Shown here: in pieces, positions 39,114-58,341 of the stretch
Numbering within the stretch: position 1 is the first letter of the stretch
Layout of the letters: the number at the start of each line of letters is the position of its first letter
Assembly (NCBI RefSeq): GCF_034090745.1
Contig: NZ_JAXDRZ010000008.1
DNA: 64,000 nucleotides
From: Blautia sp.
GTDB lineage: Bacteria; Bacillota; Clostridia; Lachnospirales; Lachnospiraceae
Strand: one strand, 5' to 3'
Position numbers and translations under genes: made by a program
The notes under the pieces: generated by a model
Seen by the model: the letters and a program-made list of their open reading frames with translations, nothing else
Told to the model about the DNA's origin: nothing
The model's database searches: none

Positions 39114-39259
39114 GAAAAACCATAAAAATACTTTTCATGCATAGTGATATATGATACAATTAAAGTACTATGAATAGCTGTGTCTGTTTGTGGAAAACAG
39201 ATATAGAGGAGAGTTCAGACAGGCTGTCTGAGAATGTATGTTTGATTGAGGAGCAGATT

Positions 39260-39694: not shown

Positions 39695-40803
39695 CAGCAT
39701 TATTGGAATTTAAACAGAAGATCAAAAGCCTGTATTCAAAGTATGAAATGTATCTGCAGCCGCTGATAAAATTCGCTCTGGCTCTTATATATTTTGTATG
39801 GATCAATTCAAATATGGGATATATGACAGTTCTGGATAATATTTTCGTTGTCCTGATCCTGGCACTGATCTGTTCGATACTCCCATCTGGAATGATGATA
39901 TTTACCGGCTATGGACTGATGGTGGCTCACAGTTATGTACTGGGCATTGATGTAGCTGCTTTTATGCTTGTACTGATATTGTTTATGCTGATCATGTTTC
40001 TCAGATTCAGCTCCGGCCAGAATATCGTTCTGGTTTTGACACCTATGGCATGTGCCTTTGATCTTCCGGTACTTTTGCCTATTGGATGCGGACTGCTTGG
40101 AAATGCACTTTCCGCTCTTCCGGCGGCAGGCGGAGTTATTATTTATTATTTTATAAGATTCCTCAGAACGCAGTCCCAGATCCTTCTGAGTGCAGACACA
40201 CAGATTTTTGACAGAATCACTATTCTGGCAGACGGTCTGATGAAGAATGGTGAGATGTGGCTTACACTGGTTGCGTTTGTTGTTGTTATTTTGGCAGTAA
40301 ACCTGATCAGAACAAGAACGTTTGATTATGCGTGGCATACAGCTATTGTAGCAGGCGGAGTCATCTATGTTGTGCTTATGCTTGCAGGAAGCAGCATGAT
40401 GGGTGTTTCTATTTCTGTAGTGCCGATGATCATTTTTGCAGTGGCAGCGGTTCTGATCGGACTTGTTTTGGAGTTTTTTGTGTATGGAGGAGATTATACT
40501 CGTACAGAAAGACTTGAATATGAGGACGATGAGTATTATTATTATGTGAAAGCAGTTCCAAAGGCTCTTGTAACAACCTCTGAAAGAAGTATCAAGAAGA
40601 TCAATGCAGAGCCTGTAAGAGAAGAGCGAAAGCAGACGGAACGAGTGGTAAAATATAATGAACCACTTTTTCAGGGAGAAGAAGCTCCCAGAAGGAGAAA
40701 AAAAGAAAGTCCGGTACAGGACGAGGAAACAGTAATACGGAAACCCATTGTAGATGATGTGGATTTTGAGAAAAAACTGGAAGAATCACTGAAAGATCTG
40801 TAA
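39691..40803 (+). CDS. Hypothetical polytopic membrane protein
   Basis: About 8 hydrophobic segments and a charged C-terminal tail with a YEDDEYYYYVKAVPK motif; lies upstream of cdaA. Confidence 0.75.
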   Translation: MTALLEFKQKIKSLYSKYEMYLQPLIKFALALIYFVWINSNMGYMTVLDNIFVVLILALICSILPSGMMIFTGYGLMVAHSYVLGIDVAAFMLVLILFMLIMFLRFSSGQNIVLVLTPMACAFDLPVLLPIGCGLLGNALSALPAAGGVIIYYFIRFLRTQSQILLSADTQIFDRITILADGLMKNGEMWLTLVAFVVVILAVNLIRTRTFDYAWHTAIVAGGVIYVVLMLAGSSMMGVSISVVPMIIFAVAAVLIGLVLEFFVYGGDYTRTERLEYEDDEYYYYVKAVPKALVTTSERSIKKINAEPVREERKQTERVVKYNEPLFQGEEAPRRRKKESPVQDEETVIRKPIVDDVDFEKKLEESLKDL

Positions 40804-43324: not shown

Positions 43325-45904
43325 TTGAAAAAACGAGTAGTGGCAGTTTTGTTAAGTCTGACCATGTGTTCGGCAATGGTTGCGGAGACAGGGGCAGCAG
43401 CGATAGCAGAGCCTTTTGCAGAAGTGGTAACTGAAGATGCGTTTTCAGATGAAGTATCTGATAATGCAGACGGGCAGAATGAAAACGGTGAAGTACAGAC
43501 AGAAGACCCGGAAGGATCAGACGGAGGAAGTATTACGATTGAAGATCCCGACTCAGAAGATGCAACAGGCAATGGAACTTCAGATAATACAGACGGTGAA
43601 ATTACAGATAATAACACAGGAGGATCTTCGGATATGGAAGCTTCTCCTGATGGACTGGATCATTTAGAAGAGGAATTTTCTGACGGTCTGTTCAGTTCAG
43701 GAGATAATATGACTGAAACAGAACAGCAGGCTCCGGTCCTGGAAGAAGAAAATACCGAAGCCGCCGCAGCTTCTTTTGAATCAGTAGATGAAGAGGCACA
43801 TAAGGCCACTCTTCTGTATACCCGTTGGAAACAATTTGGTAAAGCATGGAAACTGAGTAAACTTCCAAAAGGAAAAACAGTACAGGAAAATACAGCTCCG
43901 GATACAGGTGATGTGCAGCAGCCCACTGATAATACAGAAGCCACAGAGCAGGAAATTCCGGATGATACAGCAGTACCAGAGGTGCCTGCTGATGTAATGA
44001 CAGTACCAGAGGTACAGGGAGAGAGCGTTGTCCAGGATACAGCTGTTACTAAAACTGTGGAAGTTATGCCGGAAGAAACTGCAGATGAAGGCACTGCAGA
44101 TTTTTCAGATGAAGCAGCAGTTGTACCGGAAACAATACCGGCAGAGCCGGAAACTGTACCGGAGACAGAAATAGAAACTCAGACAGAGGAAACGCCGGCA
44201 GAAACTGCCGGAGCTGCGGTAGAATATTACAGAAAGACCATGGTAGAGGTTACAACCGTAGACAGCAAAGGAAATCAGCTTGCAAAGGGTATTTATTACT
44301 TTGATGGAAACGGAAATATGGTAACCGGAAGATTTCTGATGCGAAAAGGAACAGCCGGATACACTGAGAGCAGTGACGGAGAGTATTATTTCATGGAGTC
44401 TTATAAGACCAGTGTTTCCAATCCGGATACAGCAGCTGGAAAAAACCTGACTCCTTATAACTCTGATTTTGGTCAGATGAAGAGTAACTTTTGGGTAGGT
44501 CGTGATCTGAATAAGAAAACACAGTACCGTTACTTTGGCGATAATGGCCGTTACAAAAAAATGCCGGCTGGGGCATATAAGATCTTTAACAATAAAGATG
44601 CACTTTACTTTGCAGATGCCAACGGATATCTTGTTCAGAGTAAAATGACAAAAGGAGCCGATGGCTATTACTACTATACCAATAAATTTGGTCAGGTATA
44701 TACAGACCGTCTGATCAAGATCCAAGGCTACAGATACTACTTTACCAGCAGCGGAAAACGTGCTACCTGGAAGAATCGCTGGGTACGTCTGGGAGCAAAT
44801 ACCAAAAATCGTTATTACTACTTTGGAAGTGTTGCAGGACGTGTGCAGGAAAAGAAAGGTATTCAGAAAGTTACTGTTAACGGTAAATTTGTTGGATGGT
44901 TCCTCTTTACTTCTGGCGGCAATAATGTTCAGAATTACTGGTCCAAGGACAGATATTTCCTTCCTGACGGACGTATGGCCAGCGGTGTTACAAAAGTAGG
45001 TAAGTACTATTACTTCTTTGAGCGTTCTTCTACAACCAAGTATCGTGGAAACAGATATAAGGGAACCTGGATCAAATATAATAATAAATATTATTATGCA
45101 GCAAGCAACGGCGTCCTTGCATCCAATGGATGGAGAAACATTAAAGGCGGTAGATATTATTTCCAGAACTGTACAGCAGTAACAAATAAAAGAGTAAAAG
45201 ATCCGTCCACAAATAAATGGGGATGGCTGGATTCCCGGGGAAGATATTCTACGGAATGGATTATCATGGATGATGCCAAGAACCGCGCCCGTTATATGGA
45301 TCCAAGTACAGGATATGTGTTAAAGAACACCACCAAGACAATTGACGGAGTTAATTATCGTTTTGACAAATATGGAAACCGTGTCAGCGACAGAACAAAT
45401 GAGTTCAGACAGAGCTCTTATTATCTGGAATGTGACCGTGTAAATGGTGTTATGACTATTTATACAAATTCCAAGAAAAATGTGCCTATCAAGACCGTTC
45501 GTGTTTCTGTAGGTAATCCGGGTACTCCGACACCTCTGATGACAAATGAACGAATTGACCGTGCAGACCGTTGGCAGCTTCTTATGGGACCATCCTGGGG
45601 TCAGTATGGAACTCATGTAAGAGGCGGTATTTATATCCATTCTGTAGCAAGTGGCCAGAGACATGGAAACAATCTTCCGGCAGGAGAATATCTGAAGCTT
45701 GGAAATCCGGCTTCCCATGGCTGTATCCGCTGCTGTGTAGCAGATGCAAAATGGATCTGGGAAAACTGCAATGGATCCAGAATCAGGATTTTTGACGGAA
45801 AGTACAATGCTAATGAAACATTTAAGGGACCTCTTGGAAGAAATCCGCTGACACCATTAAGAGGAAGCGGAACTTTCGATCCTACGGACCCGGAATATAA
45901 TTAA
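43325..45904 (+). CDS. Secreted L,D-transpeptidase with acidic linker and cell-wall-binding repeats
   Basis: Signal peptide (TTG start); D/E/T/P-rich region; aromatic YYF..G repeats; C-terminal YkuD-like domain IYIHS...SHGCIR. Confidence 0.85.
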   Translation: MKKRVVAVLLSLTMCSAMVAETGAAAIAEPFAEVVTEDAFSDEVSDNADGQNENGEVQTEDPEGSDGGSITIEDPDSEDATGNGTSDNTDGEITDNNTGGSSDMEASPDGLDHLEEEFSDGLFSSGDNMTETEQQAPVLEEENTEAAAASFESVDEEAHKATLLYTRWKQFGKAWKLSKLPKGKTVQENTAPDTGDVQQPTDNTEATEQEIPDDTAVPEVPADVMTVPEVQGESVVQDTAVTKTVEVMPEETADEGTADFSDEAAVVPETIPAEPETVPETEIETQTEETPAETAGAAVEYYRKTMVEVTTVDSKGNQLAKGIYYFDGNGNMVTGRFLMRKGTAGYTESSDGEYYFMESYKTSVSNPDTAAGKNLTPYNSDFGQMKSNFWVGRDLNKKTQYRYFGDNGRYKKMPAGAYKIFNNKDALYFADANGYLVQSKMTKGADGYYYYTNKFGQVYTDRLIKIQGYRYYFTSSGKRATWKNRWVRLGANTKNRYYYFGSVAGRVQEKKGIQKVTVNGKFVGWFLFTSGGNNVQNYWSKDRYFLPDGRMASGVTKVGKYYYFFERSSTTKYRGNRYKGTWIKYNNKYYYAASNGVLASNGWRNIKGGRYYFQNCTAVTNKRVKDPSTNKWGWLDSRGRYSTEWIIMDDAKNRARYMDPSTGYVLKNTTKTIDGVNYRFDKYGNRVSDRTNEFRQSSYYLECDRVNGVMTIYTNSKKNVPIKTVRVSVGNPGTPTPLMTNERIDRADRWQLLMGPSWGQYGTHVRGGIYIHSVASGQRHGNNLPAGEYLKLGNPASHGCIRCCVADAKWIWENCNGSRIRIFDGKYNANETFKGPLGRNPLTPLRGSGTFDPTDPEYN

Positions 45905-45916
45905 TAAAAAGGAAAA

Positions 45917-45993
45917 AGGAGGCTGTTGCAAAGCTGTTCCGAAGAGAGACATTTTATATCAATCTAAGGCTACAGGAAGAGTAACAGCCTCTT
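45917..45993. repeat. Imperfect inverted repeat upstream of rfbB
   Basis: AGGAGGCTGTTGC (45917-29) and GTAACAGCCTCTT (45981-93) match at 11 of 13 positions, around a 51-nt core. Confidence 0.5.
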
Positions 45994-46011
45994 CTCAGGA
46001 GGAAAAATAAT

Positions 46012-47094
46012 ATGAGAACATATCTGGTAACAGGCGGAGCGGGATTTATTGGATCCAATTATATCCACTACATGTTTCAGAAATATGACAATGAGATCCG
46101 CATTATCAATGTGGACAAGCTGACTTATGCAGGAAACCTGGAAAATCTGAAAGACGTTGAAAACAGAGAAAACTATACTTTTGTAAAGGCAGATATCTGT
46201 GACAGCGAAGCCATTATGAAGATTTTTGATGAAAATGATATTGACCGTGTTGTTCATTTTGCAGCGGAAAGCCATGTAGACAGAAGTATCCGCAATCCGG
46301 AAGTGTTTGTAAAGACAAATGTACTGGGAACTCTGGTTATGCTTAACGCAGCAAAATCTGCCTGGGAGCTTCCTGACGGAACCTTTAAACCGGACAAAAA
46401 ATTCCTTCACGTTTCTACAGATGAGGTGTATGGCTCTCTTGAGGATGAGGGGGGATTTTTCTATGAAACCACTCCATATGATCCGCACAGCCCTTATTCT
46501 GCAAGTAAGGCATCTTCAGATATGCTGGTGAAATCTTATATGGATACCTATAAATTTCCGGCGAATATTACAAACTGCAGCAATAACTATGGACCATACC
46601 AGTTCCCGGAAAAGCTGATTCCGCTGATCATCAATAATGCTCTTCAGGGTAAGAAGCTTCCGGTATACGGAGACGGCAAAAATGTTCGTGACTGGCTGTA
46701 TGTTATGGATCACGCAAAGGGTATTGATATGGTTCAGGAAAAAGGACGTCTTTTTGAAACCTATAATATCGGCGGACATAATGAAAAGCAGAATATCCAG
46801 ATCATCCATATTATTCTGGATGCTCTTCAGGAGATGCTTCCGGAAGGAGATCCAAGAAGAGAACTTGTCAGTGAAAATCTGATCACCTATGTAGAAGATC
46901 GTAAGGGTCATGACCGTCGTTATGCCATTGCTCCGGATAAGATCAAAGAAGAAGTAGGCTGGTATCCGGAAACATGTTTTGAAGACGGTATCCGACTGAC
47001 TATTAAGTGGTTTTTTGAAAATGAGGACTGGATGAAAAATGTAACAAGCGGAGATTATCAGAAATATTACGAAGACATGTACAAAACAAAATAA
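46012..47094 (+). CDS. rfbB: dTDP-glucose 4,6-dehydratase
   Basis: GGAGFIG, AAESHVDRSI, STDEVYG, YSASK and NNYGPYQFPEKLIP motifs. Confidence 0.96.
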   Translation: MRTYLVTGGAGFIGSNYIHYMFQKYDNEIRIINVDKLTYAGNLENLKDVENRENYTFVKADICDSEAIMKIFDENDIDRVVHFAAESHVDRSIRNPEVFVKTNVLGTLVMLNAAKSAWELPDGTFKPDKKFLHVSTDEVYGSLEDEGGFFYETTPYDPHSPYSASKASSDMLVKSYMDTYKFPANITNCSNNYGPYQFPEKLIPLIINNALQGKKLPVYGDGKNVRDWLYVMDHAKGIDMVQEKGRLFETYNIGGHNEKQNIQIIHIILDALQEMLPEGDPRRELVSENLITYVEDRKGHDRRYAIAPDKIKEEVGWYPETCFEDGIRLTIKWFFENEDWMKNVTSGDYQKYYEDMYKTK

Positions 47095-47151
47095 TGTTTT
47101 CTGAACAGGGATTTGCCCGGACAACGGCAGAGATCCTGACGGAAGTCTGTG

Positions 47152-47195
47152 TGCTGCAGTTTAAGGTAATGCCGGAACTGCAGCATTGTTTTTTT
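47152..47195 (+). terminator. Intrinsic terminator after rfbB
   Basis: 10-bp stem TGCTGCAGTT/AACTGCAGCA with a 14-nt loop, then TTGTTTTTTT. Confidence 0.65.
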
Positions 47196-47322
47196 GTTTA
47201 AGAGGGATAAGACTGTCTGAGGATAACATACAAAGCGGATTTTGAGACACTTTAAAATCCTGTGGAAAGACAGGCGATAAAATGATAAAATATAAGACAG
47301 AACAGAAATGAGGGTGTTTAAA

Positions 47323-49491
47323 ATGAAAAAGATTGTGATCATTGGAGCCAATGATTTTCAGAAACCTTTGATACAAAAAGCAAAAACAATGGGATATGAG
47401 ACCCATGTATTTGCCTGGCGGGAAGGTGCCACAGGTGCAGAAGATGCAGATTTCTTTTATGAGATCAGTATTACGGAAAAAGATCAAATCCTGGATATAT
47501 GCAGAAAGATACAGCCGGATGCAGTGGCAACCATAGGATCGGATCTGGCAAATATTACAGTTCAGTATCTGGCAGAAAAATTAGGACTTCCCGGAAACAG
47601 CAGGGAGTGTATCCAGAATTCCACCAATAAAGCGTCTATGCGTCTTGCTTTTCAGGCGGCTGGTATTCCGGTACCGTTTTTTAAAACAGTAGAAGAGGGC
47701 GAAAAGTACAGTCCACAGTCATATCCTGTGATTGTGAAGCCTACGGACCGTTCCGGAAGCAGAGCAATCACCAAAGTATATAAAGAAGATGATCTGGCAG
47801 AAGCTGTTATGAATGCTGCATCTCAGTCTTTTGAAAAAAAGGCGATCATAGAGGAATATATAGAGGGGGCAGAGTACAGCGTTGAGACCATAAGCTATAA
47901 GGGGCATCACACCTGTCTGGCTGTTACAAAAAAATATACCACAGGAAGCCCTCATTATATAGAGGTGGCTCATATACAGCCGGCTCCTTTGACAGAGGAA
48001 ATGGAAAACCGGGTGAAAAAACTTGTTTTCAGAGCATTAGATGCGCTGGGAGTCGTTTGTGGAGCTGCTCATAGTGAACTGAGGATCAGTAAAAAAGGAG
48101 AAATCCGTATTATTGAAATCGGCTCCCGCATGGGCGGAGACTGTATTGGATCAGACCTTGTTCCTCTTTCTGCAGGTCAGGATTTTGTGGGAATGGTAGT
48201 AGATACAGCATCAGGAAAACCACCTGTATTAAAAGAAGCGGACAGACATGTGGCTGCCATTCGTTTCCTTATGAATGAAAATGATGAGAAACTGCTTGCG
48301 GAACTGCAGGAAAAACACCCGGATAAGCTGCGTAAAGTAGTGATAGAAGGAGAGGTAAAAAAGGCAGATATCGTGGACAGCGGAAGCAGACCTGGATTTT
48401 TTATTCTGCAGGCGGACTCCCATAAAGAAATGGAAGAACTGCTTCATCATGGTCCATGGGAAAATCCTCTTGAAGAGCTTCCAGAAACACCTGTACAGAA
48501 GCTGGGATTTTCCGGAGGAGAGATCAACTGGCAGGCTCCGGGGATTCCAGGCTGGCAGACATCATCTGCACATATACCCTGCAATCATTTTTATATGAAG
48601 AGAGACGATCTGCTGCCGTTTTCTTTTGGAGGAAACAAGGTTCGCTTTGCTCAGAAATTTCTGGAAGATATGAAAAGAGAACATTGCGACAGTATGATCA
48701 TTTATGGAAATTATCATTCCAATCTTTGCCGGATACTGTCAACTCTTTGCCATAAGCTGGGAATGCCCTGCTATATGGTTCATAATACAGAAGATATAAA
48801 AGAACAAAAAGAAACACAGAACAGCCGGGTGATCCGGGCTATGGGTGTAAGGGAGATCACATGCGGAAAAACAGGAATTGCTGATGCAGTGCAGCAGGCT
48901 GTGGATGAACTGACTGAAAAAGGATACAGACCTTATTATATTTACGGAAATACGAAAGGTCAGGGACGGGAATGGGTTCCTGTGGAAGCTTATGCGGAGG
49001 AATATGAAGAAATATGCCGTCAGGAAGAAGAAAAAGGGATTCATTTTGACTATATTTTTCTGGCATCCAGTACCAATGCCACTCAGGCCGGGCTGCTTGC
49101 AGGAAGCCTGAAAGCAGGAGACGGCAGGAAGATCATCGGTATTTCTGTTTCTCGAAATGCAAAAAGGGGAAAAGAGGTAATTGCCTCTGATCTTAATGCA
49201 TATGCAGATAAGTTTGGCTATAGCTTTCCGGAAGATTGGAAAGAGCATATTTATTTTACGGACGAATATCTGGGAGACGGATACGGACGATATTCATCTA
49301 AAACAGCGGATATTATCAGAAAAATATACGGGGAAGAGGGAATACCTCTTGATATGACCTATACAGGAAAGGCATTTTATGGTATGGTAAGATATCTGGA
49401 AGAAAATCAGATTCATGATAAAAATATTCTGTTTCTTCATACGGGAGGAACCCCTTTGTTTTTTGATTTTCTGGAGGAGAACGATCTTTAA
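47323..49491 (+). CDS. ATP-grasp ligase fused to a D-cysteine desulfhydrase/ACC-deaminase-family PLP domain
   Basis: N-terminal half: VIVKPTDRSGSRAI, IIEEYIEGAEYSVE, IIEIGSRMGG. C-terminal half: TPVQKL, KRDD...GGNK, TYTGKA, LHTGG. ATG at 47323 has an RBS; the ORF track starts at 47308. Confidence 0.82.
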   Translation: MKKIVIIGANDFQKPLIQKAKTMGYETHVFAWREGATGAEDADFFYEISITEKDQILDICRKIQPDAVATIGSDLANITVQYLAEKLGLPGNSRECIQNSTNKASMRLAFQAAGIPVPFFKTVEEGEKYSPQSYPVIVKPTDRSGSRAITKVYKEDDLAEAVMNAASQSFEKKAIIEEYIEGAEYSVETISYKGHHTCLAVTKKYTTGSPHYIEVAHIQPAPLTEEMENRVKKLVFRALDALGVVCGAAHSELRISKKGEIRIIEIGSRMGGDCIGSDLVPLSAGQDFVGMVVDTASGKPPVLKEADRHVAAIRFLMNENDEKLLAELQEKHPDKLRKVVIEGEVKKADIVDSGSRPGFFILQADSHKEMEELLHHGPWENPLEELPETPVQKLGFSGGEINWQAPGIPGWQTSSAHIPCNHFYMKRDDLLPFSFGGNKVRFAQKFLEDMKREHCDSMIIYGNYHSNLCRILSTLCHKLGMPCYMVHNTEDIKEQKETQNSRVIRAMGVREITCGKTGIADAVQQAVDELTEKGYRPYYIYGNTKGQGREWVPVEAYAEEYEEICRQEEEKGIHFDYIFLASSTNATQAGLLAGSLKAGDGRKIIGISVSRNAKRGKEVIASDLNAYADKFGYSFPEDWKEHIYFTDEYLGDGYGRYSSKTADIIRKIYGEEGIPLDMTYTGKAFYGMVRYLEENQIHDKNILFLHTGGTPLFFDFLEENDL

Positions 49492-49493
49492 TT

Positions 49494-50681
49494 ATGAAAA
49501 AAATAATGATTCTTGGCGCCAGTTATTCTCAGCTTCCTCTTTATGAGGAAGCAAAAAAACTGGGCATTTCAACAGTGGCTGCCAGCATTCCGGGAGAATG
49601 GCCGGGATTTCAGGCAGCCGATGAATTTACTTATACAGATATATCAGATCCTGATGCTGTACATAAGGCGGCAGAAAGGCTTCATGTAGACGGGATTGCC
49701 ACCTGCTGTCTGGATACCGGAGTGAGGGCTCTGGGTTATGCCTGTGAACAGCTGGGGCTGAAAGGACTGAGTGCGAAAGCTGCGGAAATCAGCAGTAATA
49801 AATTCAAAATGAAAGAAGCATTTATGGCAGGAGGGGTAAACTGTGCACGTCACATCTGTGTCCGAAACAGACAGGAGCTTGCAGAAGCTTTGGAATGTCT
49901 GAAATTTCCTGTAGTTCTTAAGGCAGTGGATCTGATGGGAAGCAGAGGAATCTTCCGGTGCAATACAAAAGAAGAAGCATTTGAGCGGTATGAAGATACG
50001 ATGAAGGCTACCGGAAAAGATTACTGTCTGGCAGAGGAGTTTATTGAGGGTGAAACGCTTGGCTGTGAGGCGATGATCTCCAATGGAAAGCTGCTTTATT
50101 GTCTTCCGAACAATATCGATGCTTTTCAGAGTTATGTACCAACACCCATAGGGCATTCTGTTCCCTACAGAAAACAGGAGACCCTGGGAGCAAAGGTGGA
50201 AGAGCAGGTAATGCTTGCCATTCAGGCAGTGGGGCTTGATAATTGTGCTGTCAATTGTGATCTGATCGAAAAAGATGGAAATATCTATGTGATCGAGATT
50301 ACGGGAAGGGCGGGTGCAACCTGTCTGCCGGAAACAGTAGGCTTATATTATGGAATAAATTATTATGAGGCAATCGTGCGGCTTGCCATGGATATGGAGC
50401 CGGAAAAATTATTTGCCGGTTACAAACCCCGGCAGTCCAGTCTTTCCAGGATATTGACTTCGGACAGATGCGGCATTGTAAAAGAAATCCATAATGGAAA
50501 TTGTCCGGCAGAGGATATTATTGATCTTTCTTTTAATATTCAGCCGGGAGATCAGGTGAACCGTTACGAAAATGGAAGAGACCGTATTGGCCAGGTGATC
50601 CTGACAGGGGAAAATCTGGATGCCTGTGAAAAGCGTCTGGAGGATATTTTGTCGAAAATTAACATTGAATTTACAGTATGA
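49494..50681 (+). CDS. ATP-grasp domain protein (amide-ligase type)
   Basis: VVLKAVDLMGSRGI, AEEFIEGET and YVIEITGRAGA motifs; similar layout to the upstream ATP-grasp. Confidence 0.82.
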   Translation: MKKIMILGASYSQLPLYEEAKKLGISTVAASIPGEWPGFQAADEFTYTDISDPDAVHKAAERLHVDGIATCCLDTGVRALGYACEQLGLKGLSAKAAEISSNKFKMKEAFMAGGVNCARHICVRNRQELAEALECLKFPVVLKAVDLMGSRGIFRCNTKEEAFERYEDTMKATGKDYCLAEEFIEGETLGCEAMISNGKLLYCLPNNIDAFQSYVPTPIGHSVPYRKQETLGAKVEEQVMLAIQAVGLDNCAVNCDLIEKDGNIYVIEITGRAGATCLPETVGLYYGINYYEAIVRLAMDMEPEKLFAGYKPRQSSLSRILTSDRCGIVKEIHNGNCPAEDIIDLSFNIQPGDQVNRYENGRDRIGQVILTGENLDACEKRLEDILSKINIEFTV

Positions 50682-50696
50682 TTGTGAGAGAATAAC

Positions 50697-51080
50697 ATGA
50701 GAAATGACCATGACTCAAAAAAAAGTACATATCTGCTGCTTCATATCAGTCTTTTGTTCAGCTCATTAAGCGGTGTCTGCTCTAAAATGGCTTCCGGATA
50801 TACAGACCGTATTTTTTCACTGCAGTTTATTTTTTGGTTCGGGCTGGTGTTTGTGATCATGTTCGGCTATGCAGTGATCTGGCAGCAGATCCTGAAGCGT
50901 ATGCCCCTGACAGTGGCATATGCCAACCGCCCTGTGACATTGATCTGGGGCATTATTTGGGGCGCGCTGATTTTTGGCGAAAAGATTACATGGAATATGA
51001 TTGCCGGAGCAGTGATCATTTTTGCCGGAATCTATCTGGTAACCTCAGAAAATTTACAGAAGGGCGGTGAGAAACATTGA
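50697..51080 (+). CDS. SMR/EamA-like 4-TM protein (ArnE/ArnF-like flippase subunit)
   Basis: 127 aa with four TM segments; WQQILKRMPLTVAY and LIFGEKIT motifs. Confidence 0.75.
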   Translation: MRNDHDSKKSTYLLLHISLLFSSLSGVCSKMASGYTDRIFSLQFIFWFGLVFVIMFGYAVIWQQILKRMPLTVAYANRPVTLIWGIIWGALIFGEKITWNMIAGAVIIFAGIYLVTSENLQKGGEKH

Positions 51081-51421
51081 GTAGTTTTCAGATATCTGTA
51101 TGTATCCTGCTTCTGTCTGTATTTATCTCATCTGTTTCTCAGATTATCCTGAAAAAAGCAGCAAATAAAACATATGACAGCCCGCTGAAGGAATATCTGA
51201 ATCCTATGGTGATCGGAGCCTACGGCCTTTTTTTCTGCTCTGTGATCCTTACTATGCTGGCACTGCGGAATCTGCCCCTTTCGATGTCGCCGATTCTGGA
51301 ATCCACGGGGTATATTTTTGTTTCGGTGATGGGATATTTCTTTCTGAAAGAAAGATTCAGCAAAAGGAAACTTATGGGATTTGCCCTGATACTTGCGGGG
51401 ATCTTTATATTTAACCTATAG
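51077..51421 (+). CDS. SMR/EamA-like 4-TM protein (partner subunit)
   Basis: 114 aa; SQIILKK, ALRNLPLS and FFLKERFS motifs; 4-nt overlap with the previous gene; TTG start. Confidence 0.75.
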   Translation: MSSFQISVCILLLSVFISSVSQIILKKAANKTYDSPLKEYLNPMVIGAYGLFFCSVILTMLALRNLPLSMSPILESTGYIFVSVMGYFFLKERFSKRKLMGFALILAGIFIFNL

Positions 51422-51437
51422 AAACGAGGGAGAAAAG

Positions 51438-52406
51438 ATGCTGGTATCGATTGTCATACCGTGCTATAATTCAGAGCACACCATCGGCAAGGTGGTGGAG
51501 CTTGCAATAGAAGAGTTCAAGAAACTAAAAGATTATGAATGTGAGTTTGTGCTTGTAAACGATTATTCCAGAGACGGTACCTGGAAGTCCATTCATGGAC
51601 TGACAGAGAAATACCCGAATGTAAAAGGAATCAACCTTGCAAAAAATTTCGGCCAGCATAATGCTATTATGGCAGGAATGAATTATGCAGAGGGAGATCT
51701 GATCCTGGGGATGGATGACGATATGCAGAATCATCCTTCTCAGATTCCGCAGTTTTTGGATAAGATGGAAGAAGGCTATGACATTGTGTTCGGAGTTTTT
51801 AAACAAAGGAAATTTTCCTGGTTTAAAAATCTTACAGGAGCAGTAAGCCGCTTCCTTCTGTGGCATCTTCTGGACCGCCCGAAGGATATCCAGATGAGCA
51901 GCTTCTGGTGCTGCCGGAAGTACGTCAGGGATGAAGTGGTAAAATATGACGGGTACAATACTTTTCTTCAGGTACTGTTTTTCCGCACCACACATAATAT
52001 TGCAAATATAGAGATCGAGCATTTTGAAAGAGAGGTAGGGACTTCCAATTATAATTTCAGGAGAGGTCTGAAACTTTTTATGTCCTGCCTGAATTTTACG
52101 GTAATCCCTCTCCGGCTTGCGACTTTTTTTGGAACATTGTTTTCGGCGGCCGGATTTATTGGGGCAATTGTAGTATTTATCCGTAAATTGCTGGATCCGT
52201 CCATAGCAATTGGCTGGTCTTCTCTTATGTGTGCCATGCTGGTACTGTTTGGCATCTGTTTCCTGATGCTTGGCATTGTAGGAGAATATCTGGGCAAGCT
52301 GATGCTGAATGTGAACAAAACACCCCAGTATGTGATCCGGGACAGAGAAAATATTTCTGAAGCAGCTGACAACAAGGATGAAGAAAAACAGGGAAATAAA
52401 GAATGA
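51438..52406 (+). CDS. GT2 polyprenol-phosphate glycosyltransferase (ArnC/GtrB-like)
   Basis: SIVIPCYN, VNDYSRD, KNFGQHNA and MDDDMQN motifs with two C-terminal TM segments. Confidence 0.88.
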   Translation: MLVSIVIPCYNSEHTIGKVVELAIEEFKKLKDYECEFVLVNDYSRDGTWKSIHGLTEKYPNVKGINLAKNFGQHNAIMAGMNYAEGDLILGMDDDMQNHPSQIPQFLDKMEEGYDIVFGVFKQRKFSWFKNLTGAVSRFLLWHLLDRPKDIQMSSFWCCRKYVRDEVVKYDGYNTFLQVLFFRTTHNIANIEIEHFEREVGTSNYNFRRGLKLFMSCLNFTVIPLRLATFFGTLFSAAGFIGAIVVFIRKLLDPSIAIGWSSLMCAMLVLFGICFLMLGIVGEYLGKLMLNVNKTPQYVIRDRENISEAADNKDEEKQGNKE

Positions 52407-53530
52407 TAGATTTTAACAGACCTGCACTTGTAGGGAAAGAACTGAATTATATTAAAGATGCCGTGGATCAGGGAATGCTCTGCGGTGACGGTAAATATAC
52501 AAAACTCTGCTCACAGTGGATGAAGGAAAGGTTTCATGCATCTCAGGTGTTTCTGACCACTTCCTGCACACACGCACTGGAGATGGCAGCGTATCTTTGC
52601 GATATCCAGCCGGGAGATGAGGTGATCATGCCTTCTTATACATTTGTATCTACTGCAGATGCTTTTGTACTTCGTGGGGCAAAGATCGTGTTCGTGGATA
52701 TCCGGCCGGATACCATGAATATAGATGAAAAGCTGATCGAACAGGCAGTTACAGAAAAAACAAAAGCTATAGTGCCTGTCCATTATGCAGGTGTTTCCTG
52801 TGAAATGGACCGGATCATGGAGCTGGCGAAAAAATATGATCTGAAAGTAGTGGAAGATGCCGCCCAGGGTGTGGAGGCCTACTACCATGGAAAGGCTCTC
52901 GGAACGATCGGTGATTTTGGATGTTACAGTTTTCATGAGACAAAGAATTATACTATGGGAGAGGGCGGAGCTCTGGTATTTCAGGACAACCAGTACCAGG
53001 AAAAAGCAGAGATCCTCAGAGAAAAAGGAACGGACAGAAGTAAATTTTTCCGGGGACAGGTAGATAAATACCGATGGATCGATTATGGATCCTCTTATCT
53101 TCCAAGTGAAATGAATGCGGCTTATCTGTATGCCCAGCTTGAGGAAGCAGAAAAGATCGATGGCAAGCGCCACCAGATCTACGACTATTATAATGAAGGT
53201 CTTAAGAGCCTTGAGGAACAGGAGAAGATCCAGAGACCTGTTGTTCCGGAAGGATGCAAACATAATGCGCATATGTATTATATTAAAGTAAAAGATCTCG
53301 AAACAAGGAGCCGTCTGATCGCCTACCTGAAAGAAAACGGAATCTGCACAGCCTTTCACTATGTACCGCTGCACAGTTCGCCGGCAGGAGAGAAATTTGG
53401 AAGATTTTCTGGAGAAGATGTTTATACTACAAAAGAAAGTGAACGTCTTTTGCGTCTTCCGATGTTTTACAATCTGTCCATGTCTGATGTAGAATATATT
53501 ACAGAAAAGATACTTGCGTTTGAGTTTTGA
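52403..53530 (+). CDS. rffA: dTDP-4-amino-4,6-dideoxygalactose transaminase (WecE/RffA-like)
   Basis: SCTHALE, TFVSTA, VEDAAQ, SFHETKNY (PLP Lys) and FFRGQVDKY motifs; close to enterobacterial WecE as recalled. Confidence 0.88.
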   Translation: MIDFNRPALVGKELNYIKDAVDQGMLCGDGKYTKLCSQWMKERFHASQVFLTTSCTHALEMAAYLCDIQPGDEVIMPSYTFVSTADAFVLRGAKIVFVDIRPDTMNIDEKLIEQAVTEKTKAIVPVHYAGVSCEMDRIMELAKKYDLKVVEDAAQGVEAYYHGKALGTIGDFGCYSFHETKNYTMGEGGALVFQDNQYQEKAEILREKGTDRSKFFRGQVDKYRWIDYGSSYLPSEMNAAYLYAQLEEAEKIDGKRHQIYDYYNEGLKSLEEQEKIQRPVVPEGCKHNAHMYYIKVKDLETRSRLIAYLKENGICTAFHYVPLHSSPAGEKFGRFSGEDVYTTKESERLLRLPMFYNLSMSDVEYITEKILAFEF

Positions 53531-53544
53531 CGGAGGAGAGAAGA

Positions 53545-54807
53545 ATGAGAAAAAAATTTGCAGGTGCGGCAGTTCTGGGACTGATATCCATGATTCTGCC
53601 GGCATCCACTGTACAGGCAGTAACTGTAAACTTTGGGACACCGGCAGCAGTAGCTACAGATAATATTCAGGGCTGGCCAAAGGGACCGGATACAGTTTCC
53701 GAGACAGCCGTGCTTATTGACGCAGACACAGGAGCTGTCCTTTATGATAAAGGAATGGACGAATACAGATATCCGGCCAGTACTACAAAAATCATGACCG
53801 TGCTTACAGCAATCGAAAACAGCTCACCAAAAGACACCGTTACTTTTACAGAAACCGGAGTCAGAGATGTAACCTGGGACAGTTCCAACATTGGAATGAA
53901 GCTGGGAGAGACCATCACCATGAAAGACTGCTGGTTTGCAGCGATCATTAAATCGGCCAATGAAGTATGTGCCCAGATGGCAGAATATGTAGGCGGTACA
54001 GAGGCTCAGTTTATAGAGATGATGAACCAGAGGGCAAAGGAGATCGGATGTAAGAATACACATTTTGCCAATGCCAGCGGTCTCCCGGATGCAAACCACT
54101 ATACAACTGCTCATGACCTGGCCAAGATCATGAGGGCAGGTCTTAGAAACCACAGGTTCCGTCAGGTGATCAGCGGAGTTAATTATACTATTCCGGCTAC
54201 GAACCTCAGCGAAGCCAGAGGGATGCATACCCATATGCCTTTGATGGCAAAGGAATCCAATCTTTATTATGAAGGATGTATTGGCGGAAAGACCGGAAAT
54301 ACCAATGATGCAGGACATACGCTTGTAACTGCAGCAGAAAGAAACGGCCGCACATATATAGCGGTAACGCTTCGGGCACCGGATCTTGGAGCAAACTGTA
54401 CCGATACGATTGCACTTTTTGATTATGCATTTAATAATTTTGATACAATAACTTTAAATGGAAAAAATATGACAGTACCTAAAGGGGTTACTGTGGATGA
54501 CCTTACTGTAAAAACAAAAGAAAAAAATGGACAGATCATGAATCAGTTTTATTACAGCGGTCAGTTTGTAGGCTATCTCATGACTCCAAAGTTTTCCCCT
54601 ACCCCTCAGGTAACACAGACTGTATCGGCAGAAAGTAATGCGCAGTCTGTCAGCGGATCAGCAGAAACCGTTTCGGAAGAGGAAAGCAGTTTGTCAGATA
54701 CTTCAAAACTGCTTCTGGGAGTCATGGCAGTTATGGCAGTGACTCTTGTGATCTTAATGGTGGCACTGCATTTCAAAGAGAAAAAAATGTACAGAACCAG
54801 ACGATAA
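53545..54807 (+). CDS. D-alanyl-D-alanine carboxypeptidase (peptidase S11) with C-terminal TM anchor
   Basis: ASTTK (SxxK), KSAN (SxN) and KTG motifs; signal peptide; C-terminal hydrophobic helix; ATG at 53545 follows GGAGG. Confidence 0.88.
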   Translation: MRKKFAGAAVLGLISMILPASTVQAVTVNFGTPAAVATDNIQGWPKGPDTVSETAVLIDADTGAVLYDKGMDEYRYPASTTKIMTVLTAIENSSPKDTVTFTETGVRDVTWDSSNIGMKLGETITMKDCWFAAIIKSANEVCAQMAEYVGGTEAQFIEMMNQRAKEIGCKNTHFANASGLPDANHYTTAHDLAKIMRAGLRNHRFRQVISGVNYTIPATNLSEARGMHTHMPLMAKESNLYYEGCIGGKTGNTNDAGHTLVTAAERNGRTYIAVTLRAPDLGANCTDTIALFDYAFNNFDTITLNGKNMTVPKGVTVDDLTVKTKEKNGQIMNQFYYSGQFVGYLMTPKFSPTPQVTQTVSAESNAQSVSGSAETVSEEESSLSDTSKLLLGVMAVMAVTLVILMVALHFKEKKMYRTRR

Positions 54808-54819
54808 GGAGGAGAAAAT

Positions 54820-55698
54820 ATGAAGGGAATTATTTTAGCAGGCGGTTCAGGAACCAGATTATATCCATTAACAAAGGCAATCTCCAAACAGATCATGCCG
54901 GTATATGACAAGCCAATGATCTACTATCCGCTTTCTACACTGATGCTGGCAGGAATCCGTGAGATCCTGATCATTTCCACACCGAGAGATCTTCCTGTAT
55001 TCCAGGAACTTCTTGGAGACGGAAAACAGCTGGGAATGAGATTTGAGTATGCGGTGCAGGAGCAGCCGAGAGGACTGGCAGACGCTTTTATTATCGGAGA
55101 GGAATTTATTGGAAACGATGCAGTGGCTCTTGTTCTGGGCGATAATATTTTTTATGGCCAGAGCTTTTCCAGAGTACTCCAGAATGCATATCAGAGAACG
55201 GAGACAGAAAAGGGAGCAACCATTTTTGGATACTATGTAAGAGATCCGAGAGAGTACGGAGTAGTAGAGTTTGACGAAAACGGAAAGGCTCTTTCTATTG
55301 AAGAAAAACCGGAGCATCCCAAGTCAAATTATGCAGTTCCGGGACTTTATTTCTATGATAATGATGTAGTGGAGATCGCAAAAAACGTGAAGCCATCTGC
55401 AAGAGGCGAGATTGAGATCACCAGCATTAACAACGAATATCTGAACAGAGGCACTCTCAAGGTAGAAACCCTTGGAAGAGGCTTTGCATGGCTTGATACC
55501 GGAAATCATGATTCTCTTCTTGATGCGGCTGATTTTGTTTCTGCGTTCCAGAAGCGTCAGGGACTTTATATTTCCTGTATTGAGGAAATTGCATATAAAC
55601 GTGGATTTATCACAAAAGAGCAGCTTGTGGAACTGGCGCAGCCTCTTCTGAAAACTGCTTATGGAAAATATATGATCGAAGTTGCGGAGGGCTTATAA
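54820..55698 (+). CDS. rfbA: Glucose-1-phosphate thymidylyltransferase
   Basis: [25 protein letters not shown] and RGELEIT-like RGEIEIT motifs. Confidence 0.97.
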
Positions 55699-55699
55699 A

Positions 55700-56269
55700 A
55701 TGGGAAAGATCACAGTAGAAACCTGTCATATTGAAGGACTGAAGGTGATTACGCCGGCAGTGTTCGGAGACGAACGCGGATACTTTATGGAGACTTATAA
55801 TTATAATGACTATAAGGCGGCAGGGATCGATCAGGAGTTTGTGCAGGATAATCAGTCCAGCTCCAGAAAAGGCGTTTTAAGAGGACTTCATTTCCAGATC
55901 AACTATCCCCAGGACAAGCTGGTTCGTGTAGTCAGCGGCGAGGTATTTGATGTGGCCGTAGACCTGAGAGAAGGTTCTCCTACTTACGGGCAGTGGTATG
56001 GCGTGCTGCTTTCTGCGGAGAACAAAAAACAGTTTTTTATTCCCAAGAATTTTGCACATGGTTTTCTGGTGCTTTCAGATTCCGCAGAATTTGCCTATAA
56101 ATGCACAGACTTTTATCATCCGAATGATGAGGGCGGTCTGGCATACAACGACCCGGACATTGCAGTAGAGTGGCCGATCCCAGAGGGAATGGAACTGATC
56201 ATGTCCGAAAAAGATCAGAAGTGGGGAAGCTTTCAGGAATATTCCGCAAACAGGAGCAAAAAGGATTGA
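55700..56269 (+). CDS. rfbC: dTDP-4-dehydrorhamnose 3,5-epimerase
   Basis: DERGYFME, QDNQSSS, LRGLHFQ and FAHGF motifs; ATG at 55700 follows GGAGG. Confidence 0.95.
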   Translation: MGKITVETCHIEGLKVITPAVFGDERGYFMETYNYNDYKAAGIDQEFVQDNQSSSRKGVLRGLHFQINYPQDKLVRVVSGEVFDVAVDLREGSPTYGQWYGVLLSAENKKQFFIPKNFAHGFLVLSDSAEFAYKCTDFYHPNDEGGLAYNDPDIAVEWPIPEGMELIMSEKDQKWGSFQEYSANRSKKD

Positions 56270-57072
56270 AAAAAGAAACCTGGCTGTCAGGGGAACTTTA
56301 CAGGAACAGAAGATTAGTATTTTCCCTGGCAAAAAACGACTTTAAAACAAAATATGCAGGTTCCTATTTTGGAACCGTCTGGGCTTTTATCCAGCCTATT
56401 GTGACCATCTGTGTGTACTGGTTTGTATTCGGACTTGCCCTGAGAAACGGAGCGGACAGAGGGGTACCCTTTGTGCTTTGGCTGGTGGCTGGTCTGGTAC
56501 CCTGGTTTTTCTTTCAGGACGGACTGGTAGGCGGTACCAATGCACTTCTGGAATACAATTATCTGGTAAAAAAGGTAGTATTTAATATACGGATCCTTCC
56601 GGTGGTAAAGGTGATCTCAGCAGCTTTTGTACACTGCTTTTTTGTGCTGATCGTGCTTGTGATCTACACCTGTATGGGATATCCTCCTACCTGGTATGCA
56701 CTGCAGCTGATCTATTACAGCTTCTGTGTTTTTATGCTGATCCTTGCAGTGACTTATTTTTCCAGCGCAGTGGTGGTATTTTTCCGTGACCTCAGTCAGA
56801 TCATCAACATTGGTCTGCAGGTAGGCGTGTGGGTGACCCCTATCATGTGGAACTTTAACGATCTTGGTCTTGAAGGGATTCTGACAAAAATTCTGAAACT
56901 GAATCCTGTGTTCTATGTGGTACAGGGATATCGTGATTCCCTGATCGACCATATCGGAATCTGGCAGCATCCATGGCTGACCCTGTACTTCTGGGTATTT
57001 ACCATTTTGCTGTTTGTTCTGGGAACGCGGCTGTTTAAGAAGCTTCAGGTACACTTTGCAGATGTCATGTAA
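56266..57072 (+). CDS. Polysaccharide ABC exporter permease (Wzm/TagG family)
   Basis: KYAGSYFGTVWAFIQP, FRDLSQI and LNPVFY motifs; TTG at 56266 overlaps the rfbC stop (the ORF track starts at 56170). Confidence 0.9.
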   Translation: MKKETWLSGELYRNRRLVFSLAKNDFKTKYAGSYFGTVWAFIQPIVTICVYWFVFGLALRNGADRGVPFVLWLVAGLVPWFFFQDGLVGGTNALLEYNYLVKKVVFNIRILPVVKVISAAFVHCFFVLIVLVIYTCMGYPPTWYALQLIYYSFCVFMLILAVTYFSSAVVVFFRDLSQIINIGLQVGVWVTPIMWNFNDLGLEGILTKILKLNPVFYVVQGYRDSLIDHIGIWQHPWLTLYFWVFTILLFVLGTRLFKKLQVHFADVM

Positions 57073-57084
57073 ATGGAGAGTAAG

Positions 57085-58341
57085 ATGAGTGAAATTGCAA
57101 TTCAGGTAAAACATCTGGATAAGATGTATAAATTATATAACAAACCTTCTGACAGGCTCCGGGAAACCCTGGGGCTTAAGGTGCCTGTAAGGGAACATTA
57201 TGCCCTCAGAGATGTAAACTTTCAGGTGGAGAGGGGAGAGACGGTAGGAATTATCGGAACCAATGGTTCCGGTAAATCTACAATCTTAAAAATCATCACA
57301 GGAGTTCTGAACCCAACAGCCGGAGAAGTGACCGTAAACGGAAGGATTTCGGCTCTTCTGGAGCTGGGAGCCGGATTTAACACGGAATATACCGGGATCG
57401 AAAACATTTATCTCAACGGAACCATGATGGGATTTTCCAGAGAAGAGGTGGACGCAAGGCTTCAGGATATTCTGGACTTTGCAGATATCGGAGATTTTGT
57501 TTACCAGCCGGTAAAAGCATATTCCAGCGGAATGTTTGTCCGCCTGGCTTTTGCGGTAGCCATCAACATTGATCCGGAGATCCTGATCGTAGACGAGGCT
57601 CTGTCTGTGGGCGATGTATTTTTCCAGGCCAAATGTTACCGTAAATTCGAGGAATTTAAAAAAATGGGCAGGACTATTCTTTTTGTCAGCCACGATCTCA
57701 GCAGTATCTCCCGCTATTGCGACAGGGTTATCCTTCTTAACAAAGGAGTAAAAATGGAGGAAGGCTCTCCAAAGCAGATGGTGGATATGTATAAACAGCT
57801 TCTGGTGGGTCAGGATCCTGCAAAGGCAGAGGAAAATAAGGAAACCCAGAAGGAGAACTGGAGCGAGCAGTTCCAGGTGAACCCCAATATGCTGGAATAT
57901 GGCAGTAAGCTGGCAGAAATTGTGGATTTTGCAGTGCTGGATGAGAAAGGTCTGTGTACAAACACCATTGAAAAAGGAAGTTCCTTCCAGATTAAAATGA
58001 AGGTTGTTTTTCATGAGAGTATCCAGGAACCGATCATGGCTTATACCTTTAAGGATATTAAAGGAACCGAGATCACAGGAACCAACACTCTTTTTGAAAA
58101 AATGGCTGTGGAGCATTCGGAAGCAGGCGATACCTGTACAGTAACCTTTCGGCAGGATATGTTCCTTCAGGGAGGCGAATATCTCCTTTCCTTTGGATGT
58201 ACCGGTTATAAGGACGGGGAGTTCACTGTTTTCCACAGACTGTATGACGCATGTAACATTACGGTAGTTTCCAATAAAAATACCGTTGGTTTTTATGATA
58301 TGAACTCGAAAGTAGAGATTCACTACGGAGAAAAAGCATGA
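57085..58341 (+). CDS. Polysaccharide ABC exporter ATPase with C-terminal Wzt_C-like domain
   Basis: GTNGSGKST, YSSGM and IVDEALSVGD motifs; about 170-aa C-terminal extension ending GEYLLSFG. Confidence 0.92.
   Translation: MSEIAIQVKHLDKMYKLYNKPSDRLRETLGLKVPVREHYALRDVNFQVERGETVGIIGTNGSGKSTILKIITGVLNPTAGEVTVNGRISALLELGAGFNTEYTGIENIYLNGTMMGFSREEVDARLQDILDFADIGDFVYQPVKAYSSGMFVRLAFAVAINIDPEILIVDEALSVGDVFFQAKCYRKFEEFKKMGRTILFVSHDLSSISRYCDRVILLNKGVKMEEGSPKQMVDMYKQLLVGQDPAKAEENKETQKENWSEQFQVNPNMLEYGSKLAEIVDFAVLDEKGLCTNTIEKGSSFQIKMKVVFHESIQEPIMAYTFKDIKGTEITGTNTLFEKMAVEHSEAGDTCTVTFRQDMFLQGGEYLLSFGCTGYKDGEFTVFHRLYDACNITVVSNKNTVGFYDMNSKVEIHYGEKA

Follow-up and report, generated by a model that had tools for sequence, protein, structure and literature searches.

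A candidate side-chain cassette for an acylated, lipid-carried amino sugar in a rhamnose-polysaccharide locus of Blautia

We analyzed a 64-kb stretch of Blautia DNA (contig NZ_JAXDRZ010000008.1; the whole stretch is called the window). Six tightly packed + strand genes at 47323-53530 lie between rfbB and dac in a cell-wall rhamnose-polysaccharide locus. They encode an ATP-grasp/pyridoxal phosphate (PLP) enzyme fusion, a second ATP-grasp ligase, two proteins with four transmembrane (TM) segments, a GT2 glycosyltransferase and a WecE-type aminotransferase. This cassette is probably a side-chain module, by which an acylated 4-amino-4,6-dideoxygalactose (Fuc4N) is made, carried on a lipid and attached by a YfhO-family enzyme to a rhamnan exported by an ABC transporter. 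All computational checks run supported this interpretation, which an initial annotation had proposed from the sequence. Its term "new system" was overstated, as side-chain glycosylation by lipid-linked three-component systems is well established, in Gram-positive bacteria too (PMC8035078, PMC11127046). The delivery route is of this known kind, and the novelty lies in the sugar and its tailoring. New here are the dTDP-derived Fuc4N donor, the use of ATP-grasp and PLP enzymes instead of acetyl or formyl transfer, and an ArnE/F-like pair in a Firmicute.

The proposed route would start with RmlA and RmlB, which would make dTDP-4-keto-6-deoxyglucose, and WecE would aminate it to dTDP-Fuc4N. In the cytoplasm, the ATP-grasp ligases, which are of the L-amino acid ligase (LAL) type, would then acylate the 4-amino group of dTDP-Fuc4N via an acyl phosphate attacked by the 4-amine. 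The second ATP-grasp protein (AG2) would add the first carboxylic or amino acid, supplied or edited by the DcyD-like PLP domain, and the ligase domain of the fusion (AG1) would add a second residue. In other genomes, WbqC or a GNAT enzyme would extend or cap the first residue. The ArnC-like GT2 would move the N-acylated sugar onto undecaprenyl phosphate (Und-P), the two 4-TM proteins would flip the lipid-linked sugar as a heterodimer like ArnE/ArnF, and a GT-C enzyme of the YfhO family, whose gene stands last in the locus, would join it to the exported rhamnan outside the membrane. The acyl group would depend on which cassette occupies the site between rmlB and dac, and the surface would vary in a serotype-like manner. 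Gene context suggests the N-acylation of Fuc4N, and homology to ArnC, ArnE/F and YfhO together with gene association points to lipid loading, flipping and attachment.

The first gene (47323-49491) encodes the fusion of 722 aa, counted from the ATG chosen by most gene callers. It is followed by AG2 (49494-50681; 395 aa), which has ATP-grasp domains and LAL_C2. The next two genes encode EamA/SMR-like candidate flippase subunits, 4-TM a (50697-51080; EamA 5e-8; four hydrophobic segments) and 4-TM b (51077-51421; EamA 2e-10; four hydrophobic segments; TTG start, 4-nt overlap). The GT2 gene (51438-52406; 322 aa; Glycos_transf_2 2e-29) encodes an ArnC/GtrB-type polyprenyl-phosphate glycosyltransferase, and the last gene (52403-53530; 375 aa) encodes the aminotransferase. 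The intergenic distances are 2, 15, -4, 16 and -4 nt, in this order. Thus, all six open reading frames of the initial annotation were present with their domains. That annotation had placed the cassette between rfbB and rfbA. The upstream neighbour is indeed rfbB, but the gene after WecE encodes a DD-carboxypeptidase (dac), and rfbA comes only after dac.

The aminotransferase was assigned by family models and structure. It scored 636.2 bits against NF008687 (dTDP-4-amino-4,6-dideoxygalactose transaminase; cut-off 375) and 622.1 bits against TIGR02379 (cut-off 434.85), and it matched E. coli WecE (4PIW) over its full length with an E-value of 3.8e-158. The name of TIGR02379 gives the gluco epimer for the same WecE subfamily, and the galacto configuration at C4 of the product is a prediction. 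Strong homology points to the formation of dTDP-Fuc4N by RmlA, RmlB and WecE. The same three enzymes make dTDP-Fuc4N in the Fuc4NAc branch of enterobacterial common antigen, and the cassette enzyme is an equivalog of the WecE of that branch. Unlike that branch, the cassette uses ATP-grasp and PLP enzymes instead of a WecD-type acetyltransferase, and it has no cytoplasmic glycosyltransferase building the sugar into a repeat unit. The absence of a GNAT acetyltransferase or formyltransferase had been noted before; a Pfam domain search of the six cassette proteins found no GNAT, hexapeptide or formyltransferase domain.

Relatives of the fusion or its PLP domain were present in at least 560 species-level genomes. 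Neighbour mapping covered 92 loci, and the association counts given here refer to 55 well-flanked loci drawn from the best 80. In type A loci (Blautia and close relatives), the order is AG1-PALP, AG2, 4-TM a, 4-TM b, GT2 and WecE, where PALP is the PLP domain. This order was identical in 17 species-level Blautia/Lachnospiraceae genomes, so the six-gene arrangement is not a chance one. Identities of the type A ligase/PLP genes ranged from 97% down to ~64-65%, and those of the rml genes were 82-100%. The co-occurrence that had been proposed for Lachnospiraceae was therefore confirmed, and the ligase/PLP/aminotransferase and GT2/4-TM links hold far wider. Type B has a fusion of an AG2-like ligase with PALP, and the 4-TM pair, GT2 and WecE come after it. 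In some type B cassettes, where AG1 is absent, a WbqC-family gene (PF08889, 2e-78) stands between the fusion and the 4-TM pair. Type C has a stand-alone PALP, GT2, an AG2-like gene and the 4-TM pair; WecE is adjacent in most of these loci and YfhO in some. In type D, found in Bacilli, Clostridium tertium, Enterococcus aquimarinus, Oscillospiraceae and others, the order is Wzx, PALP, a PylC-like ATP-grasp gene (often fused to GNAT), a DegT aminotransferase, RmlA and RmlB. By neighbour mapping, type D loci contained no ArnC-like GT2 and no 4-TM pair. The AG2 type of ligase accompanies the PLP gene in type A-C loci, and in types B and C AG2-like genes are adjacent to or fused with PALP.

An ATP-grasp gene was fused to the PLP gene or within 3 kb of it in 54 of the 55 loci, and a DegT aminotransferase gene was within 6 kb in 44. 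The 4-TM pair was present in 27/35 loci with an ArnC-like GT2 vs 0/20 without it (p = 8e-9). For an adjacent Wzx, the counts were 0/35 and 10/20, respectively. The ligase, the PLP enzyme and the aminotransferase most likely act on the nucleotide sugar, because the ligase/PLP set is joined to the aminotransferase in both the Und-P and the Wzx modes of delivery. Three kinds of fusion were found, AG-PALP (the window), PALP-GNAT (P0216) and AG-GNAT (L071 and L095), and they appear to tie successive steps together.

Several other loci combine ATP-grasp genes with sugar genes. A Wzx-type locus (L096, 9001-17686) carries a PALP-GNAT fusion, three different ATP-grasp genes, a CitMHS transporter and an alanine racemase beside DegT; it seems to build a peptide of several residues, perhaps including D-Ala, on an amino sugar. 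A Parabacteroides distasonis capsule locus (L257, "plasmid 22") has two ATP-grasp genes beside DegT and is without PALP, and one of the two is 39% identical to AG2. This "plasmid 22" carries ileS in addition to the capsule locus and may be a chromosomal fragment. In L257 and Brachyspira hyodysenteriae pBhyoB78 (L258), which are polysaccharide loci from other phyla, AG2-like and TupA-like ATP-grasp amidoligase genes adjoin DegT and RgpF genes.

The interval between rmlB and dac in Blautia (47095-53544 in the window) was compared in loci fetched through the highly conserved RmlB. At least four states were found: empty, type A, type C and a cassette without the PLP gene. The empty state, RmlB-Dac-RmlA, was present in 8 assemblies, including B. 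intestinalis and Blautia sp. Marseille-P3087. The PLP-less cassette, in B. glucerasea and two metagenome-assembled genomes (MAGs), contains a 4-TM pair, a distinct ArnC-like GT2, a PylC-like ATP-grasp gene and WecE at 81-86% identity. The GT2 and the 4-TM pair differ from one cassette type to the next, and WecE is present in the cassettes seen whole. The site thus behaves as an exchangeable side-chain determinant; example loci are L100, L117, L120, L121 and L128, and L120 has an additional 356-aa protein with no Pfam match.

The DD-carboxypeptidase was considered as a seventh cassette member, perhaps trimming a D-Ala-ending peptide, and was rejected, since its gene stays in empty-site genomes. 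It may still be linked to the cassette in function. The gene lies between rmlB and rmlA with or without a cassette (L102-L108, L111 and L113), and it is also found near cassettes of other architectures (L037, L040, L050, L085 and L256). It diverges faster than any neighbour, with 47-77% identity vs 82-98% for the rml genes.

AG1 occupies residues 1 to ~375 of the fusion (47323..48447, + strand; ATP-grasp_4 2e-24). In an AlphaFold 2 model of the fusion (pLDDT 84.9, pTM 0.80), its best match was the L-amino acid ligase 3VOT (TM-score 0.80), and further structural matches were 4DIM and RizA. AG2 is 28% identical to AG1. It contains the Pfam domains ATP-grasp_4/_3, ATPgrasp_N and LAL_C2 (5e-12), all above cut-off, and it matched 4DIM, an uncharacterised protein of Anaerococcus prevotii, with an E-value of 1.4e-107. 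Within the ATP-grasp superfamily, both ligases fall into the L-amino-acid-ligase branch. They are like the L-amino acid ligases BL00235, BacD/YwfE and RizA, and also PurD and PylC, in fold, in domains including LAL_C2 and in their expected chemistry of acyl phosphate and amine. They differ in the proposed nucleophile, which would be the sugar 4-amine or the amine of a sugar-bound residue and not a free amino acid. Gene context argues for a sugar amine as the acceptor of AG1 and AG2, instead of the ligation of two free L-amino acids.

The structure 4DIM, a template for the AG2 ligase clade, was deposited as phosphoribosylglycinamide synthetase. This name is probably wrong; 4DIM is a close homologue of AG2 (1e-107) and the closest protein with a solved structure. 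A search for a cassette around 4DIM returned only close Blautia relatives at the protein level and no Anaerococcus match among plasmids.

The PLP domain (48565..49491, + strand) is of fold type II and matched PALP (PF00291) with 5e-26 and 92 bits vs a cut-off of 35. It belongs to the D-cysteine desulfhydrase/ACC deaminase/CuyA family, with a match to 4D8T of 1.5e-30 and a fold match of the model to DcyD (TM-score 0.74-0.79). The initial annotation gave this domain no role, though no other part of the cassette is as conserved or as widely shared. The GGNK lysine, the S-N loop and the DcyD-type YTGK and HTGG motifs were invariant in two sets of distant homologues (14 and 9 sequences). Thus, the domain shares the fold, the catalytic Lys and these motifs with DcyD, ACC deaminase and CuyA, but it is far below the equivalog cut-offs and is coupled to ATP-grasp enzymes in polysaccharide loci. 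Compared with Salmonella DcyD, His80 and Gln77 are replaced. The conserved Cys of the HSNLCR motif was considered as a second racemisation base and was dropped, as it was not invariant once stand-alone homologues were added. Retention of the carboxylate-binding loop speaks for an amino acid substrate whose carboxylate is free. Racemisation or beta-replacement by this domain could provide the ligase with an unusual amino acid; alternatively, the domain could edit a residue already attached through its side chain.

The latter possibility leads to a different order of steps, in which the PLP domain acts after ligation, with the residue attached through a side-chain carboxyl, or with the sugar-bound residue epimerised, eliminated or substituted. 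DcyD chemistry needs a free alpha-amine and alpha-carboxylate, and a side-chain-linked Asp or Glu keeps both. N-(aspart-4-yl) amino sugars occur in O antigens. The conserved S-N carboxylate loop, the tight fusion of ligase and PLP domain and the confident two-domain model also fit this order. The stand-alone PLP genes of types C and D indicate, in contrast, that the fusion is not required, and we consider action after ligation rather unlikely.

The expected acceptor transferase had been missing from the window and was sought beyond it. Within the window no GT-C gene was found; the upstream multi-TM candidates were transporters, ComEC and a 370-aa protein of the cdaA neighbourhood without a Pfam match. 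Contigs encoding the last complete protein of the window continue with GT2x2, GT2x2, RmlD and YfhO, followed by unrelated genes. The YfhO protein has 869 aa and matched PF09586 with 4e-61 and 207.8 bits vs a cut-off of 28.5. Its start is projected near 66.3 kb in window terms, ~2.3 kb past the window end. In a Lachnospiraceae relative with 56% identity, YfhO is directly upstream of the fusion gene, and YfhO or DUF2142 directly adjoins the cassette in L011-13, L027, L037, L038, L227, L238, L239 and L256.

Among the best 80 of 117 loci with YfhO relatives, 32 had ABC exporter genes upstream, with the order ABC, ..., RmlD, YfhO at the ends of ABC-type rhamnan loci. A WecE-like gene was directly downstream in six of these 80 loci, and the whole cassette was alongside in four. 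The best 80 included 13 of the 17 type A assemblies vs none of the 8 empty-site assemblies, whose flanks were read to 2.8 kb before the expected YfhO position (Fisher p = 5e-4). In 12 of the 13 type A assemblies listed, YfhO was on the contig of the cassette, and it was ~19 kb downstream in one that was worked through. The locus therefore has the GT2, the small multi-TM proteins and the GT-C of a three-component glycosylation system, and the Und-P-sugar intermediate and its flipping are predicted.

Known systems of this kind include CsbB/GtcA/YfhO, GtlA/GtlB, GacI-L and lactococcal Csd, and, in O antigens, Gtr and the ribofuranose system of C. youngae O1 (PMC8035078, PMC7389260, PMC11127046). 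The cassette resembles them in its GT2 Und-P-sugar synthase, small flippase and GT-C (YfhO), and in the separate export of the rhamnose polymer. The known systems carry plain Glc, Gal, GlcNAc or pentofuranoses from UDP sugars or phosphoribosyl pyrophosphate, mostly with a GtrA/GtcA-type flippase, whereas the cassette would carry a tailored dTDP-derived amino sugar with an ArnE/F-like pair. An EmrE/ArnE-like flippase is present in the Citrobacter ribofuranose system (PMC8035078, PMC7389260, PMC11127046). Characterised YfhO-family enzymes modify lipoteichoic acid and wall teichoic acid (PMC7389260, PMC8035078), and the lipid-linked sugar could accordingly be made as proposed and end on lipoteichoic acid, peptidoglycan or a protein instead of the rhamnan. 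The position of this YfhO clade at the ends of ABC-type rhamnan loci and the embedding of the cassette between rml genes argue against such an acceptor, which we regard as distinctly unlikely.

The GT2 contains a DDD motif and two C-terminal TM segments. Among solved structures, its best full-length match was ArnC (9HWJ, 3e-44), followed by GtrB (5EKP, 3e-36), in agreement with the Arn-like lipid loading that had been proposed. The 4-TM a protein matched ArnE weakly (2e-8), and 4-TM b had weak matches to EbrA, ArnE and ArnF (~1e-6), all below cut-off. The GT2 and the 4-TM proteins are relatives of ArnC, ArnE and ArnF, not orthologues. The natural donor of ArnC is an N-acylated 4-amino sugar. 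The likeness to the Arn (Pmr) pathway extends to a DegT-family 4-aminotransferase, N-acylation before lipid loading, an ArnC-type GT2, a 4-TM SMR-like pair and an external GT-C. The differences are in the donor, which is a dTDP-6-deoxyhexose (Fuc4N) in the cassette vs UDP-4-amino-4-deoxyarabinose (UDP-Ara4N) in Arn; in the acylation, for which the cassette would use ATP-grasp and PLP enzymes without a deacylase and Arn uses a formyltransferase; and in the last step, where the GT-C is YfhO with a Gram-positive wall polysaccharide as acceptor instead of ArnT with lipid A.

The Arn pathway also suggests a product of another kind. Along the same route, a free cationic amine would be delivered as in the Ara4N pathway, and the acylation would be transient like the formylation by ArnA, or the ligases and the PLP enzyme would be unrelated to it. 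The Arn precedent, in which a transient N-acyl group pulls an unfavourable transamination, and the ArnC-like GT2 fit this scheme. However, no ArnD-like deacylase was found in the cassette or its variants, two ATP-dependent ligases and a PLP enzyme would be costly for a transient group, and a GNAT accompanies the ligase/PLP set in Wzx-type loci, suggesting that a capped aminoacyl group is retained. Delivery of a free amine is very unlikely.

That the ligases and the PLP enzyme make a free dipeptide or an unusual amino acid, exported by the EamA-like pair in a bacilysin-like manner and placed in a glycan locus by chance, is hardly credible: the nearest relatives of both ligases are the L-amino acid ligases BL00235, BacD and RizA and EamA/SMR proteins are typically metabolite or drug exporters, but the 4-TM pair follows the ArnC-like GT2 and not the ligases (27/35 vs 0/20), the ligase/PLP pair follows DegT in unrelated polysaccharide loci of Bacilli, Clostridia and Bacteroidota, and at a single site of the rhamnan locus the cassette is exchanged whole, WecE included.

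The proposal of an acylated, lipid-carried Fuc4N side chain on the rhamnan was weighed against a number of points. It is based on homology and gene association, and no structure of a Blautia wall polysaccharide was found in the searchable literature. The GT2 missed the ArnC equivalog cut-off (165.5 vs 529), and the 4-TM pair scored 34.2 and 29 against ArnE (cut-off 92) and 28.9 against ArnF (cut-off 99). The pair is missing in 8 of the 35 GT2-bearing loci, for example in L011. The PLP domain was below all equivalog cut-offs, with 158/450 for CuyA, 146.5/450 for XcbE, 123.7/392 for ACC deaminase and 117.5/429 for DcyD; for the subfamily TIGR01275 it scored 139.6 bits vs a cut-off of 289.4. Members of the D-cysteine desulfhydrase/ACC deaminase/CuyA family are known to catalyse deaminating alpha,beta-eliminations on D-cysteine, ACC or cysteate, and these reactions do not obviously give an acyl donor. 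The mechanism is weakest in the part that it assigns to the PLP domain. LAL-type ligases normally take the amine of an amino acid as nucleophile, and PurD is to our knowledge the one textbook case of an ATP-grasp enzyme with a sugar amine as nucleophile. The absence of YfhO from empty-site genomes comes from a pattern-based scan of the best 80 of 117 loci and is suggestive, and the YfhO acceptor could be another polymer. Gut metatranscriptome contigs span 45000-58500 almost end to end, which is consistent with expression of the cassette region, and these contigs may include carried-over DNA.

Amide-linked amino acids on amino sugars are known from O-antigen structures, for example Qui4N with an N-acetylglycyl group in E. 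coli O121/S. dysenteriae 7 (PMC7685785). These structures resemble the kind of product that is expected from the cassette. The O121/S. dysenteriae 7 cluster contains wbqC, and the WbqC link, which is drawn from gene names, is a lead. No paper describing the cassette or the PLP/ATP-grasp couple in glycan loci was found, in a literature search of incomplete coverage. We tentatively suggest, as a possibility that falls somewhat short of likely, that the PLP/ATP-grasp pair is a widespread couple that puts a non-standard amino acid (for example a D-, beta-substituted or sulfonated one) or a short peptide on the amino group of nucleoside diphosphate amino sugars, giving a peptide-decorated, cassette-switched rhamnan in gut Lachnospiraceae.

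Blautia is one of the most abundant human gut genera, and the locus predicts a variable, amide-tailored amino-sugar side chain on its wall. Such a side chain, if it exists, would shape phage receptors, recognition by antibodies and lectins, and surface charge. The exchange of cassettes would then be a serotype system in abundant commensals, and the D-cysteine desulfhydrase family would gain a new reaction. The couple of DcyD-like PLP and ATP-grasp enzymes may explain how amide-linked amino acids reach bacterial amino sugars generally. For each state of the locus there are cultured strains, which makes the prediction directly testable; type A is represented by Blautia caecimuris DSM 29492, B. 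intestinihominis CLA-AA-H95 and B. schinkii MSK.6.26, the empty site by B. intestinalis 27-44 and Blautia sp. Marseille-P3087, and the PLP-less cassette by B. glucerasea.

The host of the window is a Blautia species. The nearest contigs were from the uncultured Blautia sp. UMGS1622 and a Blautia MAG, with 96-100% protein identity. The flanking features between 46012 and 58341 are on the + strand. Upstream of the cassette, rfbB/rmlB (46012..47094) encodes dTDP-glucose 4,6-dehydratase (TIGR01181, 482.6 bits vs a cut-off of 365). The spacer of 228 nt between rfbB and the cassette contains a terminator-like hairpin with a U-run (47151..47198; minimum free energy -21.1 kcal/mol, z = -4.2 vs shuffles) and a promoter-like site (47263..47291; TGGAAA-17-TAAAAT with TG), the latter by consensus match alone. 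With these elements in the spacer, the cassette looks like its own transcription unit. An Rfam search of 43-58 kb of the window gave no match at E <= 0.1.

Downstream, dac (53545-54807; Peptidase_S11 1e-50) starts after a gap of 14 nt from WecE and encodes a secreted S11 DD-carboxypeptidase with a C-terminal anchor. It is followed by rfbA and rfbC of the dTDP-rhamnose pathway (54820..56269; TIGR01207, 492.9 bits; TIGR01221, 255 bits), and rfbA would also feed the WecE branch. After rfbC come an ABC-2 permease and an ATPase with a Wzt_C domain (56266..58341; Pfam matches on identical genes in L093), a 727-aa methyltransferase protein and tandem-GT2 enzymes. The permease and the ATPase are presumed to export the rhamnan backbone, and the rhamnan is presumed to be the acceptor polymer. 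The Wzt_C ATPase and the 727-aa protein, which has an N-terminal methyltransferase domain, lie at 57085-60521. Their resemblance to the WbdD/Wzt terminator capping of E. coli O8/O9a suggests that a methylated terminus may control chain length.

Directly upstream of the rhamnan locus, a gene at 43325-45904 encodes a large secreted protein with a C-terminal YkuD L,D-transpeptidase domain. Its N-terminal half is acidic and of low complexity, and it contains cell-wall/choline-binding-like repeats. Two conserved genes at 39170-40803, upstream of cdaA/cdaR, encode proteins of 174 aa and 370 aa (~8 TM) with no Pfam match. The pair was directly upstream of cdaA/cdaR where checked (the window and L008), and its synteny is found in many Lachnospiraceae loci. 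In L008, the cassette is inserted directly 5' of this gene pair.

Metatranscriptome contigs from four gut samples matched the window near-perfectly from 50.6 kb onward. The same contigs had more than 50 substitutions relative to the window, clustered in the AG1 domain (47454-48285). Contigs also break, with foreign sequence joined, at 49493 (AG2 start), at 50627-50646 (near the AG2 end) and at 53044 (inside wecE). These substitution clusters and breakpoints point to strain-level mosaics of the cassette.

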